Shown here piece by piece: positions 5,060-48,826 of a stretch of 64,000 bases of DNA (positions are counted from its first letter, which is position 1; each line of letters begins with the position of its first letter). Source of the stretch: Escherichia coli (lineage in GTDB: Bacteria; Pseudomonadota; Gammaproteobacteria; Enterobacterales; Enterobacteriaceae); assembly GCF_048403405.1 (NCBI RefSeq), contig NZ_CP183129.1; one strand, given 5' to 3'. The notes below the pieces were generated by a model. It was not told where the DNA came from. It saw nothing but the letters and a program-made list of their open reading frames with translations, and made no database searches. The position numbers and the translations under genes are program-made.

Positions 5060-7434
5060 TAGATTGACTCCCCCACCTGAGCATCAGTCAATGCCTTGTG
5101 CCATATTCTGAAATTCCTTACATGACCAAATAAATGACGTAACCCGGCTGTAGTCTGGCCTCCAATACGGATAATTGCGGTGTTCTGAATACAGGACCAT
5201 GTGGTTTTTGTTTCGCTGGATATACGCCCGTTACTTACTGCGCATGTAGACTGATCAGACTTTACACGCATCCCCATAACCATTTTTTCAAGTGATGCAT
5301 TTTCGTTTATCCGTCTGTTAGACCCACCAATATCGCAATAAGGAAATCCGTCGTAATCTGCTGAAGAACCGAAGCCAAGAATAATAGCCGCTCCGGTTTG
5401 ATGACCGCCGGTATCAAAAACACGCGGTGCTGCATTTGGCGTTTTATACCAGTTCTTATGTACCTCACAAAGAACCGTAAAAGGAAGATTATAAAGATTA
5501 TTCTTAATGGGAACTGTGACTATATCGCTTGCGCGGGTCGCCGCCGTCGTTCCTGATATAATAAAAGATGATACACAAGGCCCATTTTCTACTTGTGGGG
5601 TGGCCAGATAAATATAGTCACCAGATACGGTTGCCCCGCCCTGCTTAGGAGAATACTGTATCTGAGAACCTATTTTTAACTCCCCATCAATTGCCTGAAT
5701 TGTTGCCTCTGCAAAAATCCATCCGATAACTTCGTCCTTTCTGACTCTCGCTGTAATCCTTGAGGCAGCGCCGCCTGTCATATTAATTTCAAGCGTTTGT
5801 GTATCAATATACACATCACCAAGAAAAGTTGTTGCGCTACCGTCATATTTATCAAATCGGATACGCAACCTTACCTGCAGTTCTGTTTTAAAACGACATG
5901 AGGTTGTCACGTATTTATTATCGCCTGAGACATCAACTGACTTTGTTGCAGCAATTGATGCCATATTAATGGCTGAGGTTTGCCCAATCAGAGAATCGTT
6001 ACAGACAAACTTTCCATAGGTAAAACCAAAACTATCCGTCCCGGTTTCGGGAACATCCATATTTGACGATCGCCCCCAACTGGCAGGGCTTTCCGAATTG
6101 AGCATGTAGTTCGTTCTTTGCCCCTCAATAAGCAGGCCATCACGTTCAAACCGTGGCTCGTCAATGGCAGCCTCTGTCAGCACACCAGATTTATTAATAT
6201 AGGTTGCTTTCGATGCGCGTTTAAACTTAACAACCTTGTCGCCAGGCATCGTTATTTCATCATCACCAATAACAATCTTTTTATATGACGGCGAAAAGCC
6301 CGTAATCATATCCAGCGAATCGTTAAATGGTATCCACACATCAGGCAGCGGCTGTAAGACATATTTATACGGCTCCGCAGCCTGGCTTGCGTACTCTCTG
6401 GCTGCATCTTCGCTTGCTTTAGCTGCCGTCTGGCTTGCTGCCGATGCTTTCGCTGAGTTCGCAGCCGCTGTTTCGCTCACCTTTGCGTTGGTTTCACTGG
6501 TTTTTGCTGCTTTTTGACTGTTAGCTGATGCAGTGGCAGAAGCAGCAGCCGCGCTTGCAGAACCAGCTGCAGCACTCTCGCTTTCGGCTGCTGCATCCTG
6601 ACTGCTTTTCGCCGCAGTTTCGCTGGCTTTGGCATTCGTTTCGCTGGTCTTCGCTGCCGTCTGGCTGGACTTTGCGTTAGTTTCACTCGTCTTCGCTGCT
6701 TTCTGACTGTTAGCCGCAGCAGTTGCTGATCCAGCAGCTGAAGTCGCAGAACCGGCTGCCGCGCTCTCGCTTTCGGCTGCTGCATCCTGACTGCTTTTCG
6801 CCGCAGTTTCACTGGCTTTGGCATTCGTTTCGCTGGTTTTCGCTGCCGTCTGGCTGGACTTTGCGTTGGTTTCGCTCGTCTTTGCGGCTGTCTCGCTATT
6901 TTTCGCGTTGGTTTCTGATTTTTTGGCTGCTGTCGCGGAGTTTTCTGATGCAGTCTGTGAGGTCGCTGCCGCCTGTGCACTATTAGCTGCATTCGTTTCT
7001 GAGGTTTTCGCCGCGTTCTTCGATGATGCCGCTGCAGTTTCGGATTTCTTTGCCGCCGCTGCGCTCTGAGAGGCGGCTTCGGCGTTGCGTGCCGCTTCTT
7101 CCACCATTTCCTCAAAACGACGCAATGCCTCCGGCATGACATCATCTTCCGTCATGGCACCGAGAAAATCATTCAGCGTACCTGGTCTGGAACCTTCATA
7201 GACGGTAATGGTTCCGGCATGTGAAGGCGGAAAACCTTCAACAAGCAGGATAACGCTGTACTGGCCATACTCAACATCCATGCTGTAACGCCCGGCTTCA
7301 TCCGGATTTTCAGAGGCCACCGTGTTCACCAGTACCGTGGTGCTGTTACGCTTTGCCTTCAGTTGAATAGTGCAGTTCTGTATTGGTTTTCCCGCACCAT
7401 CTTTCAGCACACCTGAGATTTTTACTGCTGCCAT
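5059..7434 (-). CDS. stf: Side tail fibre (lambda Stf-like N-terminus, divergent C-terminal receptor-binding part)
   Basis: The N-terminus MAAVKISGVLKDGAGKPIQNCTIQLKAKRNSTTV...GRYSMDVEYGQYSVIL matches remembered lambda Stf. The ATG at 7434 follows GGAG; the track ORF starts 2 codons earlier at GTG. There is an Ala/Ser/Thr repeat shaft. The C-terminus ends ...RNFRIWHKALTDAQV, typical of LamG/concanavalin-like domains. Confidence 0.85.
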   Translation of the reverse strand: MAAVKISGVLKDGAGKPIQNCTIQLKAKRNSTTVLVNTVASENPDEAGRYSMDVEYGQYSVILLVEGFPPSHAGTITVYEGSRPGTLNDFLGAMTEDDVMPEALRRFEEMVEEAARNAEAASQSAAAAKKSETAAASSKNAAKTSETNAANSAQAAATSQTASENSATAAKKSETNAKNSETAAKTSETNAKSSQTAAKTSETNAKASETAAKSSQDAAAESESAAAGSATSAAGSATAAANSQKAAKTSETNAKSSQTAAKTSETNAKASETAAKSSQDAAAESESAAAGSASAAAASATASANSQKAAKTSETNAKVSETAAANSAKASAASQTAAKASEDAAREYASQAAEPYKYVLQPLPDVWIPFNDSLDMITGFSPSYKKIVIGDDEITMPGDKVVKFKRASKATYINKSGVLTEAAIDEPRFERDGLLIEGQRTNYMLNSESPASWGRSSNMDVPETGTDSFGFTYGKFVCNDSLIGQTSAINMASIAATKSVDVSGDNKYVTTSCRFKTELQVRLRIRFDKYDGSATTFLGDVYIDTQTLEINMTGGAASRITARVRKDEVIGWIFAEATIQAIDGELKIGSQIQYSPKQGGATVSGDYIYLATPQVENGPCVSSFIISGTTAATRASDIVTVPIKNNLYNLPFTVLCEVHKNWYKTPNAAPRVFDTGGHQTGAAIILGFGSSADYDGFPYCDIGGSNRRINENASLEKMVMGMRVKSDQSTCAVSNGRISSETKTTWSCIQNTAIIRIGGQTTAGLRHLFGHVRNFRIWHKALTDAQVGESI
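6470..6888. repeat. 189-bp (63-codon) in-frame tandem repeat inside stf, 2 full copies plus a partial third
   Basis: Units start at 6888, 6699 and 6510 on the minus strand, each beginning AAKTSETNAK. The 20-mer ctttcggctgctgcatcctg recurs at 6581 and 6770. Confidence 0.85.
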
Positions 7435-7444
7435 ATCCACTCCA

Positions 7445-7473
7445 CAAAAAAGCCCGCCTGAACCGGCGGGCTG
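7445..7473 (-). terminator. Rho-independent terminator after lom
   Basis: Minus strand: AGCCCGCCggttcaGGCGGGCT followed by TTTTTT. Confidence 0.75.
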
Positions 7474-7498
7474 TCATAACACTGTGTTACCTGGCTAA

Positions 7499-8098
7499 TC
7501 AGAATTTATAACCGACACCCACGATGAAACCGTCAGTGCGCCAGTCACCACTGCCGGAACCTTCATAAGCAAGGTCAATGGCCACGGATTCGGTCGGGTT
7601 AAACTGCACGCCAGCCCCCCACGCCAGAGACGTGTTGCTGTGGCGACCGTCATCACTTCCGGTCAGCACATCGTGCGTTTTCCCCTTGTTGTCAGTTACG
7701 CGGAGATAATCCCCGGAGAAGGTCGACACACGGCTGTAAGCCATACCCGCCATCGCATAAGCACTGAACCATTCATTCACGCGTACAGATGGCCCCGCCA
7801 TCATGCTGAACCAGCGGTTACGCACGGAATCTTCATGCCAGCGGGTATCGCTGTAATGCGTTTTTTGCTCATCTTTGGCATTGGCATAACTGAATGACGT
7901 CACCAGCCCCAGCGTGTCCGTAAATTCATAACGGTATTTCACGTTAATGCCCTTCAGGTCATCACTGCCTGGCATATCAGTATGGGTCTGAAGATACCCG
8001 GCGCTTAGTGTGGACTGATGCTCTGCTGCGCTCGCTGGCGTACCAGCGGCAACCAGCCAGACTACTGCGGACAGAATAACAGCACATAATTTACGCAT
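7499..8098 (-). CDS. lom: Lom outer-membrane protein (Ail/Lom family)
   Basis: 199 aa with a signal peptide. The C-terminus ...YEGSGSGDWRTDGFIVGVGYKF is identical to remembered lambda Lom. Confidence 0.9.
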   Translation of the reverse strand: MRKLCAVILSAVVWLVAAGTPASAAEHQSTLSAGYLQTHTDMPGSDDLKGINVKYRYEFTDTLGLVTSFSYANAKDEQKTHYSDTRWHEDSVRNRWFSMMAGPSVRVNEWFSAYAMAGMAYSRVSTFSGDYLRVTDNKGKTHDVLTGSDDGRHSNTSLAWGAGVQFNPTESVAIDLAYEGSGSGDWRTDGFIVGVGYKF

Positions 8099-45154: not shown

Positions 45155-45507
45155 ATGTTTTCGAAATGGAAGGGTTTCTTCGCGGGAAATGTGTACCGCG
45201 AGATCTGAAAGTGAACGAAACAAATGCTGAGTACCTGGTACGTAAATTCGACGCGCTTGAAGCTAAATGTGCGGCACTGGAAAACAAAATAATACCAGTG
45301 TCAGCTGAACTGCCACCAGCAAATGAAAGTGTTCTGTTATTTGATGCTAACGGAGAAGGCTGGCTGATTGGCTGGCGTTCTCTCTGGTACACCTGGGGAC
45401 AAAAAGAAACCGGAGAATGGCAGTGGACATTTCAGGTCGGGGACCTTGAAAACTTCAATATCACTCACTGGGCAGTAATGCCAAAAGCGCCGGAGGCTGG
45501 AGCATAA
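45145..45507 (+). CDS. YfdS-like protein (DUF551-type C-terminus)
   Basis: 120 aa. It ends ...THWAVMPKAPE, which is typical of DUF551. Confidence 0.6.
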   Translation: MRMNVFEMEGFLRGKCVPRDLKVNETNAEYLVRKFDALEAKCAALENKIIPVSAELPPANESVLLFDANGEGWLIGWRSLWYTWGQKETGEWQWTFQVGDLENFNITHWAVMPKAPEAGA

Positions 45508-46127
45508 TGACCACATTTACCAATAAAGAACTGATTAAAGAAATCAAAGAACGAATCAGCAGCCTAGAGGTTCGAGACGATATTGAGCGCCGTGCTTATG
45601 AAATTGCTCTGGCATCGCTAGAAGAGGAGCCGGTGGCATGGCTGCATTCAGAAAATGGCTTAGGTATTCCGGCAATAACGAGGAGTAAAAACATTGCTGA
45701 CAGTTGGTTATCAAAGGGCTGGTATGTTCAGCCGCTATATATAGCCAAGCCAGTGCCGATGGTGCCAGATGCTCGTCCGTCTTTAAATAATGGCATAGTC
45801 GGCTTTGATGAAGGCTGGAACGCCTGCCGCGCCTCCATGCTTAATGGTGCCGAACCTGTAAGCCAGACTTATAAGTTGAACGAGCTGTCGGGCAACTCTC
45901 CGGTAACTCCGGATGGTTGGATAAGCTGTAGTGAGCGAATGCCGAACGATAAACAGTATGTTTGGTGTTGGGGTAAGTCTTACGGCTGGACTGAGTGCGA
46001 TACCTTCGAAGGGTATTACGATTGTTCGAGAAACAAATGGTGGGCAGTTACTGACAATGGGGAAGAACCGGCATCGAAAGTAACCCACTGGATGCCGCTA
46101 CCGGAGCCGCCGCAGGAGGTGAAGTAA
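45507..46127 (+). CDS. DUF551 domain protein
   Basis: 206 aa. The C-terminal WISCSERMPNDKQYVWCW...VTHWMPLPEPP is a DUF551 signature. Confidence 0.6.
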   Translation: MTTFTNKELIKEIKERISSLEVRDDIERRAYEIALASLEEEPVAWLHSENGLGIPAITRSKNIADSWLSKGWYVQPLYIAKPVPMVPDARPSLNNGIVGFDEGWNACRASMLNGAEPVSQTYKLNELSGNSPVTPDGWISCSERMPNDKQYVWCWGKSYGWTECDTFEGYYDCSRNKWWAVTDNGEEPASKVTHWMPLPEPPQEVK

Positions 46128-46321
46128 TGAACAACTTAATGACAACTAAACAAGTCGCCGATTTCTGTGGTGTTTCAGTATCGACAGTTCTTCGCTGGAA
46201 CAGCGTAAACAGGAGAACTGGCCAGAAATACAGGCCTGACTTTCCAGATCCTGATATTAAATCCTGCCCAAATAAATGGGCATCACACAAGATTTACAGA
46301 TTTGCGGGAGTGATTGATTAA
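46127..46321 (+). CDS. AlpA/Xis-type small HTH protein (candidate excisionase)
   Basis: 64 aa. LMTTKQVADFCGVSVSTVLRWN is an MerR/AlpA-like HTH. It is the last gene of the early-left operon and faces int. Confidence 0.65.
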   Translation: MNNLMTTKQVADFCGVSVSTVLRWNSVNRRTGQKYRPDFPDPDIKSCPNKWASHKIYRFAGVID

Positions 46322-46597
46322 TATGTATTAGCTTAGATGTGAGCTGACACATCTATGATTAGATGCCAAACCTAATCTGAGCGTCCACTCTTTACCAAGA
46401 GCGGACGTTACCAATGACCATATGACATGAATCGATAAGATCAAAACATTATCGCCAAGAAATGTATTGATACAAATAAAATTGATTACCCCCTTACTCT
46501 TGTTGAAAAGTTAGTCGTAGAGTACCTATCGCAATGTAATCAGCTTTAATCATCTGAAAATTACTCCTTAAAAATTAGCTTTTATATACTGAACAAA

Positions 46598-47317
46598 TTA
46601 AATCTCTGTTTCTTTTCCTGTTCGGCTCAACCAATACTCCATTGTTTGAGTATGAATCTTTTCAGCGTATATTTTTTCAATTAATTTATCTCGTTTTTCT
46701 TTAATGACTTTACGCAGTGAATCATATAACATAAAAAAACGTTCATCATCTTCCTCATTATTACCGTAATTTATTTGATTGAGTTCTGAAAAAATATGAT
46801 AGCACCTTTTTTTCTTGGTCCCCGGCAATATTAAAACCAAGCCGCATTGATCATATTCAAATTCACCTTTATGGGCAGCAAAGTTATGTCTAACATTCAT
46901 AATAGAATCATGTAAATCTCTGTATTTTTCTGGCACATGCTTTCTCTGCAATGTGAATCGACGCCCTTTCGCCTCTGTAAAACACTTACCGTAAGTAACA
47001 ACTTTTGATATAAATAAAGACTTTAATATTAGATTCTTTTCTAAATCAGGATAAATAAAGTGTTGTTCTCTATTAATGTTATTACAAATGTTTTTTATTA
47101 TATTCTCCCAACCAATAACATTCCGAAGATCTTTATCCAGCAACTGTAAGGCCACATATTGTTCTACAAAGCGGCCTTTTAAAGGTATTCGTGGTAATAT
47201 TACACCTTTCTGCTTATAAACTCTTTCTATCGTATTATCTGGATATTGGATCTTCCTTATTTCTATTCCGTCTTCTTCTGATACCCTTACTAATGGTTCA
47301 TTTTTTAACTTTGACAT
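46598..47317 (-). CDS. Orphan AT-rich gene downstream of int; unknown function (Rx5H HEPN-like motif)
   Basis: 239 aa, visibly AT-rich compared with its neighbours. The motif is NVRHNFAAHKG. I recognise no family. Confidence 0.6.
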   Translation of the reverse strand: MSKLKNEPLVRVSEEDGIEIRKIQYPDNTIERVYKQKGVILPRIPLKGRFVEQYVALQLLDKDLRNVIGWENIIKNICNNINREQHFIYPDLEKNLILKSLFISKVVTYGKCFTEAKGRRFTLQRKHVPEKYRDLHDSIMNVRHNFAAHKGEFEYDQCGLVLILPGTKKKRCYHIFSELNQINYGNNEEDDERFFMLYDSLRKVIKEKRDKLIEKIYAEKIHTQTMEYWLSRTGKETEI

Positions 47318-47602
47318 GTTAACCCTCTTAAATAAAAAACTAACTTTATCCAGATAGTGTCCGTTAAGAAGTTTTCGTTACAACTAAGTTTCTAGGTAAA
47401 TCATGAATCAACCTATAGTATCAAAAACATTTGGTGGTAAACATCTGCATTTATCAAATAGCAGGAGCGATTTAGGGGCATAGGGATAGTGATGATATCT
47501 ATACCCGTGCCCTCTTATGTCAACACAATGGCGTAAACTTAACGCTCACATCTCGCTCAAAGTGTGCTAGGAGATTTGGTTATGTTCAGGTGATACAAAC
47601 CG

Positions 47603-48826
47603 TCAGTTTGAATCAGAGATAGTACAATTAACAATCGATTCAACCCTCTTCCACCATGCCAGGTAAGCTTTACGCTGTTCTTCTAGATAATCGCTCTTAT
47701 CATAAACTTGCCATACCCCTGGCAGCTTATGACCAAGCATAATTTCTGCGATATGAGGCGCAGTAAGATCAGAAAAATTTGTTCGTGCTGTCCGTCTCAA
47801 GTCATGAAGAGACCAATGAGGGAATTGATATCCTAAACGCCGCCACGCGTACTGCATTAAATTGTAAGGCAGCGACTGTAATGATGTCCTACCGACTGGC
47901 TCCCTGCTTCCTTCCTTAGTAAAAAGCATATCGGAACCGTTGTTCATAGAGATAACGTATTTTATAAGCTCTTCAACCGGTTCAATAATGGGCCGCTTTA
48001 GCGGTTCGCCTGTTATGTCCCCTGTCTTATGTCGTTCAGGTGGTACAGTCCATACCTTATTTATGAAATCAAAATCACCCACCCTAGCAGTAATTAGCTC
48101 CGAACTACGGCAACCAAAATGCAGTAATAGTTTAATGAAGGCCCTGTATTTGGGAACCATTCTAGAGCCATCGATCGCAGCATAAAGAATTTTAATTTCA
48201 TCGTGTGTCAGAAACCGTTTCTTCTGACCTTTACGGATATCCATATCTTTACCCGTGATATCCGACAGCGGGCGAGTTTCAATAAGCTTTCTCTTATACG
48301 CCCAGACATGGGCCTGCTTTGCGTTAATTAGCAATCGGTCTGCTATTGCTGGAGTCTTAGTGCTAAGAGGCTCCAGGACTTCTAACCAATCATGCAATGT
48401 AGCTGCATCGTGAGGGATATTCCCGATTTTAGAGAACAGGTGCAGCTCAAACGAGCGGAGTATCTGTTCAGAACTCTTTTTATTTTTTACACAATATGCT
48501 TCATACCAGGCACGGATCACAGACTCTACCGTCATGGCTTCAGTAGCTTTTCGTTTTTCAGCCTGCTTGACCAATCGTGGATTACGGTTTGACTCGAGTT
48601 CACCACGGAGACGGATAACTTCTTCTCTGGCCTCTTTTAATCCAGTTGCCGGGTAAGTTCCGATATCAAGACGCTCACCTTTCCCTGCCCATTGATAACG
48701 ATATTGGAACACTACGCGACCTTTCGGTGATACTCTGACAGACAGACCATCACGATCGGATTTAACCAAAACCTTATCACGTTCCTTTCCAACGACTGAA
48801 CGCAACCACGCATCAGACAGCGCCAT
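47603..48826 (-). CDS. int: Tyrosine integrase (P4-type, DUF4102-like N-terminal arm-binding domain)
   Basis: 407 aa. It has a catalytic-region HDLRRTARTN...LGH...Y pattern. The 5' end faces the att core 230 bp away. Confidence 0.92.
   Translation of the reverse strand: MALSDAWLRSVVGKERDKVLVKSDRDGLSVRVSPKGRVVFQYRYQWAGKGERLDIGTYPATGLKEAREEVIRLRGELESNRNPRLVKQAEKRKATEAMTVESVIRAWYEAYCVKNKKSSEQILRSFELHLFSKIGNIPHDAATLHDWLEVLEPLSTKTPAIADRLLINAKQAHVWAYKRKLIETRPLSDITGKDMDIRKGQKKRFLTHDEIKILYAAIDGSRMVPKYRAFIKLLLHFGCRSSELITARVGDFDFINKVWTVPPERHKTGDITGEPLKRPIIEPVEELIKYVISMNNGSDMLFTKEGSREPVGRTSLQSLPYNLMQYAWRRLGYQFPHWSLHDLRRTARTNFSDLTAPHIAEIMLGHKLPGVWQVYDKSDYLEEQRKAYLAWWKRVESIVNCTISDSN

Follow-up and report, generated by a model that had tools for sequence, protein, structure and literature searches.

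The question raised by positions 46322-47602 (1281 bp) of a 64,000-nt stretch of Escherichia coli contig NZ_CP183129.1 (GCF_048403405.1), referred to below as the window, is what is encoded by the AT-rich gene found there, which lies between the integrase gene int and an xis-like gene of a prophage and specifies a protein of 239 aa. An earlier reading of the sequence (the original prediction) had described it as an orphan gene with an Rx5H motif and had proposed it as a single-gene phage-defence candidate of the HEPN type. Taking the whole chain of the argument together, we lean towards a prophage accessory cargo gene that encodes a self-contained anti-phage HEPN-type metal-independent RNase. 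The gene and its candidate motif are as follows (coordinates are those of the window).

46598..47317, minus strand: 239-aa open reading frame (ORF) with an ATG start; WP_000040220.1, annotated 'hypothetical protein' by PGAP; gp29 of phage 2H10; phrog_8440
46871..46891, minus strand: codons of R143-H-N-F-A-A-H149, candidate HEPN Rx4-6H catalytic motif, at the end of predicted helix 3 and the start of the next loop

The gene has already been predicted computationally to act in defence, with neither a name nor a proposed mechanism in the literature that we searched. In its Table S10, based on 3,000 E. coli genomes, DefensePredictor (Science 2026, PMC13092281) gives the cluster as 'Predicted novel defense gene', with WP_000040220.1 as the representative, WP_000040218.1 (239 aa) as a member, and no remote homologue. 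The log-odds of the cluster average 9.62 (range 6.3-11.6; cutoff 4), and the validation rate of that screen was 45% overall, rising with log-odds (PMC13092281). Neither the 94 cloned units nor the validated systems of DefensePredictor (Tables S6-S8) include the accession, none of the family's signature peptides were found in the supplementary sequences searched, and the literature searched contained no mention of WP_000040220.1.

Gene family, motif and predicted fold

The ORF is present where the original prediction placed it, and pairwise ratios of nonsynonymous to synonymous substitution (dN/dS) against diverged copies (0.03-0.26; about 0.1-0.2 for most of the informative pairs) identify it as a real protein-coding gene under purifying selection. 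The reading that it is not a gene was ruled out by these ratios and by the size of the homologue family. Its description as an orphan did not hold: an exhaustive profile search returned 925 clusters of homologues at E<=1e-3, of which 398 reach E<=1e-10, with lengths almost always within 220-250 aa, so the gene is unannotated, not orphan. A word-indexed search returned 25 clusters, in Enterobacterales. The named homologues come from Enterobacterales, Vibrio, Photobacterium, Psychromonas, Pantoea, Pseudomonas and Alteromonadaceae, and every one of them is annotated as 'hypothetical protein', without a Pfam domain. The sole library entry that matches the 239-aa protein, phrog_8440 (function unassigned), does so over its full length (E 1.7e-144).

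Motif and conservation statistics were computed on an alignment of 109 diverse members with a mean column identity of 26%. D63, Y109, R119, H136 and R143 are invariant across these members, and H149 is found in 108 of the 109; both R143 and H149 fall in the peptide HDSIMNVRHNFAAHKGEF (residues 136-153 of the 239-aa protein). According to a review of the HEPN superfamily (Pfam clan KNTase_C; Anantharaman et al. 2013), its members are marked by Rx4-6H, with N, D or H right after the arginine (PMC3710099). The R-to-H spacing in our family is always 5, and among the 108 motif-bearing members the residue following the motif arginine is H in 61, N in 46 and D in one. The Rx5H motif noticed in the original prediction is thus conserved across the family. 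Most of the conservation is held by residues 92-151, with an entropy of about 2.0 bits, and the beta elements vary more, at about 3.0 bits.

A four-helix bundle (helices 49-79, 92-111, 130-148 and 188-221) is predicted by the AlphaFold2 monomer model of the window protein, which has a predicted local distance difference test score (pLDDT) of 86.3 and a predicted template modelling score (pTM) of 0.75. Helix 130-148 of the model is predicted to carry R143 and H149 at its end, and the invariant R119 lies in the predicted loop 112-129. Two further elements are predicted outside this HEPN core: beta structure near the N terminus (about residues 9-47) and, directly after the motif, a beta hairpin (157-180) that separates helix 3 from helix 4. 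The second AlphaFold2 model, built from a separate alignment for a Photobacterium member that is 32% identical (pLDDT 91.6, pTM 0.84), has the same predicted layout, with helix 123-140 carrying R136 and H142.

All four of the HEPN motif and topology features that could be tested were found in the 239-aa protein. Searches for known relatives gave a different picture: Pfam, NCBIfam, PADLOC and PDB sequence searches with the window protein returned no match, in agreement with the earlier statement that no family could be recognised, and no HEPN model of Pfam, NCBIfam or PADLOC reached threshold for the window protein, the 109 members or consensus sequences. Sequence searches of the PDB, with the single protein and with the family profile, returned no HEPN protein, and no significant sequence-profile match to any HEPN family was obtained. 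In PADLOC-DB v2.0.0 the window protein has 0 matches and the 109 members give seven single-member matches (E 0.0004-0.008); matches to Tcp10_C, Sel1, FAM186 and Fic were dismissed as noise. A Foldseek search of the model against the PDB returned nothing significant. We conclude that the 239-aa protein probably belongs to the HEPN superfamily, and we read its family as a new, highly divergent HEPN family.

An alternative that bears directly on this assignment is that the protein is a helical-bundle accessory protein that is not nucleolytic, e.g. a superinfection exclusion protein, a regulator or an adaptor, in which the conserved arginine and histidine would serve binding or structure. Such a protein would agree with the predicted bundle and with the lack of a significant HEPN profile match, and it could still be defensive; the motif, with its constant spacing and its H, N or D after the arginine, argues for an RNase, and we consider the alternative unlikely.

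The cargo slot between xis and int

The region is the int end of an E. coli prophage, since beyond int lie attR and then the host genes yjjG, rimI, holD and rsmC (from 49211). The prophage is lambdoid (Glaedevirus/2H10-like) and is integrated beside yjjG; with Escherichia phage 2H10 (Glaedevirus) the locus shares 99.3% identity. E. coli YDC107 matches the window at 100% identity over 46322-47602 and also over the larger interval 45500-48826. Region 46322-47602 is present in 70 of 5426 complete E. coli genomes; the full arrangement of xis side, gene and int was found by DNA search in 69 genomes only. The features that delimit and surround the gene are listed below.

47603..48826, minus strand: tyrosine integrase gene int (Pfam Phage_integrase, Arm-DNA-bind_3 and Phage_int_M; PGAP), right-hand anchor of the slot, directly upstream of the 239-aa gene and co-oriented with it
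46127..46321, plus strand: 64-aa xis-like helix-turn-helix gene, left-hand anchor of the slot and last gene of the converging early-left operon; called excisionase in phage 2H10
46335..46356, no strand assigned: perfect 8-bp inverted repeat TAGATGTG-6 nt-CACATCTA, directly past the xis-like gene; conserved phage backbone
46380..46409, no strand assigned: strong hairpin with a 12-bp stem (by folding), at the left edge of the swapped cargo module (by module boundary)
46416..46597, minus strand: cargo-specific AT-rich non-coding DNA downstream of the ORF, with no Rfam family and no notable ORF
47318..47595, minus strand: cargo-specific upstream region of the 239-aa gene; homology to the slot variants returns only at 47552-47621
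47323-47329, minus strand: Shine-Dalgarno sequence AAGAGGG, 5 nt ahead of the ATG
47436-47441 and 47415-47423, minus strand: promoter-like element from a relaxed scan only, with -35 TTTACC and extended -10 TGATACTAT, respectively

The xis-int slot is filled differently in prophages whose int and left-hand genes are about 95% identical, as follows.

AIPR protein: matches PADLOC AbiU (E 3e-111)
dGTPase (L041): E 8e-105
L042:1494-2489, plus strand: 331-aa unannotated protein, no Pfam or PADLOC match
L043:795-2036, minus strand: 413-aa unannotated protein, no Pfam or PADLOC match

The slot is therefore a defence hotspot in the usual sense, i.e., a variable position of a mobile element where established defence genes are found as well, and the xis-int slot of 2H10-like E. 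coli prophages can be regarded as a clean single-gene defence hotspot. The 331-aa and 413-aa genes are further defence candidates because they occupy the same slot and have no Pfam or PADLOC match. That the 239-aa gene had been proposed as a single-gene defence candidate is supported by this slot (with AbiU/AIPR and dGTPase as its other occupants), by the defence neighbours of its homologues and by the lack of a conserved partner (see below).

The limits of the exchanged module can be placed from the same comparisons. Homology to the variants L040, L042 and L043 stops at 46406-46415, just beyond the second hairpin, and homology to the dGTPase variant stops at 46353, after the first; it restarts at 47552-47621, around the int stop codon. 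These limits define a swapped module of ~46416-47595 and leave the hairpins in the phage backbone. Both of the hairpins named in the original prediction are thus real but do not belong to the cargo module: the 101-nt hairpin segment folds at -31.7 kcal/mol as compared to -15.5 +/- 2.9 for shuffled sequences (z = -5.55; 0 of 200 shuffles as good), and the 46380-46409 pattern occurs once in the window, with 0 expected by chance. There is no T-run after the hairpin at 46335-46356 and none on either strand at 46380-46409, so neither is a canonical intrinsic terminator. We note that a hairpin at L027:7740-7765 (after umuC, at the upstream module edge) shares a 9-nt stem, ACGTCCGCT/AGYGGACG, with 46380-46409; the hairpin could be a terminator that has been reused, or a junction element serving module exchange.

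The composition of the gene also sets it apart from the prophage, as had been stated: the GC content of the ORF is 0.315 (0.263 at third codon positions), that of int is 0.445, and that of prophage and host is 0.50. The non-coding flanks, given earlier as about 280 bp on each side, measure 276 bp (46322-46597) and 285 bp (47318-47602) and contain only chance-sized ORFs (22-43 aa), no Rfam family and no conserved small ORF; a match to snoU6-53 in Rfam (E 0.24) was rejected as chance.

Expression of the gene in the lysogen is plausible, judging from its flanking DNA. A strict promoter and terminator scan found no canonical terminator and no promoter on the gene's strand at the expected places; the element at 47415-47441 is a candidate promoter. 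The window and L027 share the ~150 nt nearest the gene on its upstream side; in L027 the upstream gene is umuC and not int, so the 239-aa gene carries its own upstream region. Because no terminator lies between int and the 239-aa gene, read-through from int is also possible. In addition, a perfect -35 TTGACA lies at 47519-47524 (minus strand), ~200 nt upstream of the ORF start, with no good -10 at 16-18 nt and a TATAGA at 14-nt spacing; it could be a second promoter that is weak or activator-dependent.

Other observations concern the neighbors and the integrity of the locus. The match of the 64-aa xis-like protein to HTH_17 is weak (E 1.4e-4, under the Pfam cutoff), and PGAP leaves this ORF (46127-46321) unannotated in E. 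coli YDC107. The DUF551 gene at 45507-46127 is given by PGAP as two partial pseudogenes in YDC107, and the window has an intact ORF of 206 aa. Damaged copies of the 239-aa gene are found in L030 (1510-2067), truncated to 185 aa, and in L031 (1510-2066), split into ORFs of 91 aa and 116 aa; among the E. coli matches, one genome has IS1 inserted in the region and another has a 62% partial copy. Such copies could reflect decay, or counter-selection of a costly gene.

Homologue contexts, proposed mechanism and alternatives

A profile scan of genome contigs with the family alignment gave one locus, and the context statistics therefore rest on 39 sequences, which include the window and many near-identical lambdoid copies. 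A co-oriented tyrosine integrase gene is the next gene upstream in 27 of the 39. Its distance from the gene is 285 nt in the lambdoid group and +35 to -47 nt (i.e., overlapping) in P2-like prophages. The homologue in P2/186-like prophages of Enterobacter and Yersinia comes straight after int and overlaps its last codons, being the final gene of the repressor-int operon, at the prophage edge. The int-att interval has been described as a minor defence hotspot of P2 (PMC13586616), and it is this interval that the P2-like homologues occupy. The P2-like prophage of Psychromonas aquimarina (L014:2783-7720) has a seven-gene cargo array between int and an S24 repressor, with HEPN_AbiV, TIR_2, an ion-channel-like protein, the homologue and three genes without a Pfam match (93, 216 and 122 aa).

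Outside prophages, the homologue of Photobacterium sp. J15 (L009) stands alone between two consecutive attC-type repeats of an array of ~17, and is therefore a single-gene integron cassette. The repeats of this chromosomal integron (L009:1-14702) are ~110 nt long, and other cassettes encode SAD_SRA-HNH, DUF2971, DUF2726/Zn-ribbon, FRG and OGG proteins; the array looks like a library of defence-like cassettes. The Vibrio alginolyticus homologue is found near TacA/TacT and CBASS (a cyclic-oligonucleotide-based antiphage signalling system). In L027, L029, L032 and L033 (about 6000-8000) and in L007:682-1005, the homologue follows a umuD/umuC-like pair at the contig end (N-termini by eye). In L033 a protein with a TIR-like N-terminus (also by eye) is encoded just downstream of the homologue, on the opposite strand. 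No partner accompanies the homologue consistently across the lambdoid, P2-like, umuDC-linked, integron, Vibrio and Pseudomonas contexts.

What is established for the window gene is that it is real, that its motif is conserved, that the topology is predicted as described, that it sits in a hotspot and that it has no conserved partner. The RNase reading that we favour goes further. In the lysogen the gene would be transcribed either from its own upstream region or through read-through of int transcription, and its product, by analogy with the prophage protein HepS and with HEPN enzymes generally, would rest as an inactive oligomer, so that no antitoxin would be needed. A component of an infecting phage would be sensed, probably via the variable N-terminal beta region and the inserted beta hairpin. 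The R-[HND]-x3-A-H motifs of two protomers may then form a composite site and cleave tRNA, rRNA or mRNA, as the HEPN assignment suggests; translation would halt, and the infection would abort.

The protein could instead be a toxin that mainly keeps the mobile element, prophage or integron, in its host by addiction or stabilisation, with an antitoxin (e.g. a small RNA or a peptide) hidden in the AT-rich flanks. The contexts argue against this, since neither a minimal nucleotidyltransferase (MNT) nor any other partner is conserved across them and the flanks hold no conserved small ORF and no Rfam family. There is also no room for a partner, because the P2-like gene overlaps the end of int and the cassette has ~110 nt upstream and its last codons enter the next attC. 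HepS, moreover, is a precedent for a solo HEPN protein that is held inactive without an antitoxin (PMC13043305). We regard an addiction role as quite unlikely. It is highly improbable that the gene encodes an integrase accessory factor, e.g. a protein that acts with the tyrosine recombinase to control directionality or integration. An integrase does lie immediately upstream on the same strand in 27 of 39 sequences, and the short or negative gaps in P2-like prophages suggest translational coupling, but int works without the gene in sister prophages (~95%-identical int, unrelated cargo), the integron cassette, Pseudomonas, Vibrio and umuDC-linked homologues have no integrase nearby, lambdoid and P2-like integrases differ in length and domain set, and no DNA-binding domain was detected in the 239-aa protein.

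Returning to the anti-phage RNase, one may tentatively, and with some doubt, go as far as to see the window protein as the first member of a large unnamed HEPN clade of Gammaproteobacteria (at least 900 clusters at 50% identity). Such a clade would combine a conserved RNase core (92-151) with a fast-evolving beta module, the N-terminal region and the hairpin beside the active site, as its phage sensor. This sensor and effector in one protein would move as a unit among int-adjacent slots of lambdoid and P2-like prophages and integron cassettes; in P2-like phages its translation would be coupled to that of int, with immunity expressed from the lysogeny operon.

Comparison with known systems

Among HEPN proteins of mobile elements, AbiU2 is the family to which ours shows a trace of sequence similarity. 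HEPN_AbiU2 (PF18734) is the only Pfam family matched by more than three of the 109 members at a relaxed E-value (five members, best E 0.015), and these matches pair the helix-3/R-x-x-x-x-A-H segment with positions 113-142 of the 193-position profile. The best score is 15.2 bits over ~30 residues as compared to a gathering threshold of 26.8, and the window protein has no match; being below threshold, the 239-aa protein is not filed as an AbiU2 member. AbiU2 (of Lactococcus) and, on the proposed reading, the 239-aa protein are both Abi-type HEPN proteins on mobile elements. AbiU2 is usually found in operons with Sel1-repeat or restriction-modification genes (PMC3710099), whereas our family is solo. 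An hhalign comparison of the family with the AbiV protein of the Psychromonas array gave an uninformative probability of 0.2.

HEPN toxins of the HepT type (PDB 7ae2, 5yep, 8xdj) and YutE/DUF86 (1ylm) share 9-10% sequence identity with the 239-aa protein, which is ~100 residues larger than HepT-type toxins through its added beta elements. HEPN-MNT systems have an adjacent MNT antitoxin, whereas the 239-aa gene has no MNT in the contexts examined. The tyrosine of the HepT-type RX4HXY motif, used for AMPylation, is absent; the motif of our family is followed by S/A/K/G and then G. The HEPN protein of an integron cassette from Vibrio paracholerae (PDB 3jrt) has no sequence relation to the family profile and differs in size and domain additions.

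In its proposed mode of action the 239-aa protein resembles HepS (STM14_3211) of the Salmonella prophage Gifsy-1, a solo HEPN abortive-infection protein. HepS forms a silent tetramer; tail-tip proteins of siphophages switch it on, and it then cuts the anticodon loops of tRNAs (PMC13043305). The motif of HepS is R100-x4-H105 as compared to R143-x5-H149 in the 239-aa protein, which has in addition the N-terminal beta region and the beta hairpin. PDB sequence searches, by single protein and by profile, detected no similarity to HepS, whose entry there is unconfirmed, and the LT2 Gifsy-1 record has no ORF with R100/H105, i.e., it does not encode HepS. Tha of Staphylococcus aureus prophages is a HEPN-domain defence system that is activated by structural proteins of incoming phages (PMC11087260). 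It comes from a different phylum and family, and triggering of the same style is plausible for the 239-aa protein.

The proposed function is not conceptually surprising, because HepS and Tha are established precedents and the cluster already figures in a published machine-learning screen. If the proposal is true, it would add a new widespread HEPN family to these single-protein abortive-infection systems, giving a name and a function to ~900 'hypothetical' clusters, and would provide a compact sensor-plus-RNase of 239 residues for studying how solo HEPN proteins are silenced and triggered.

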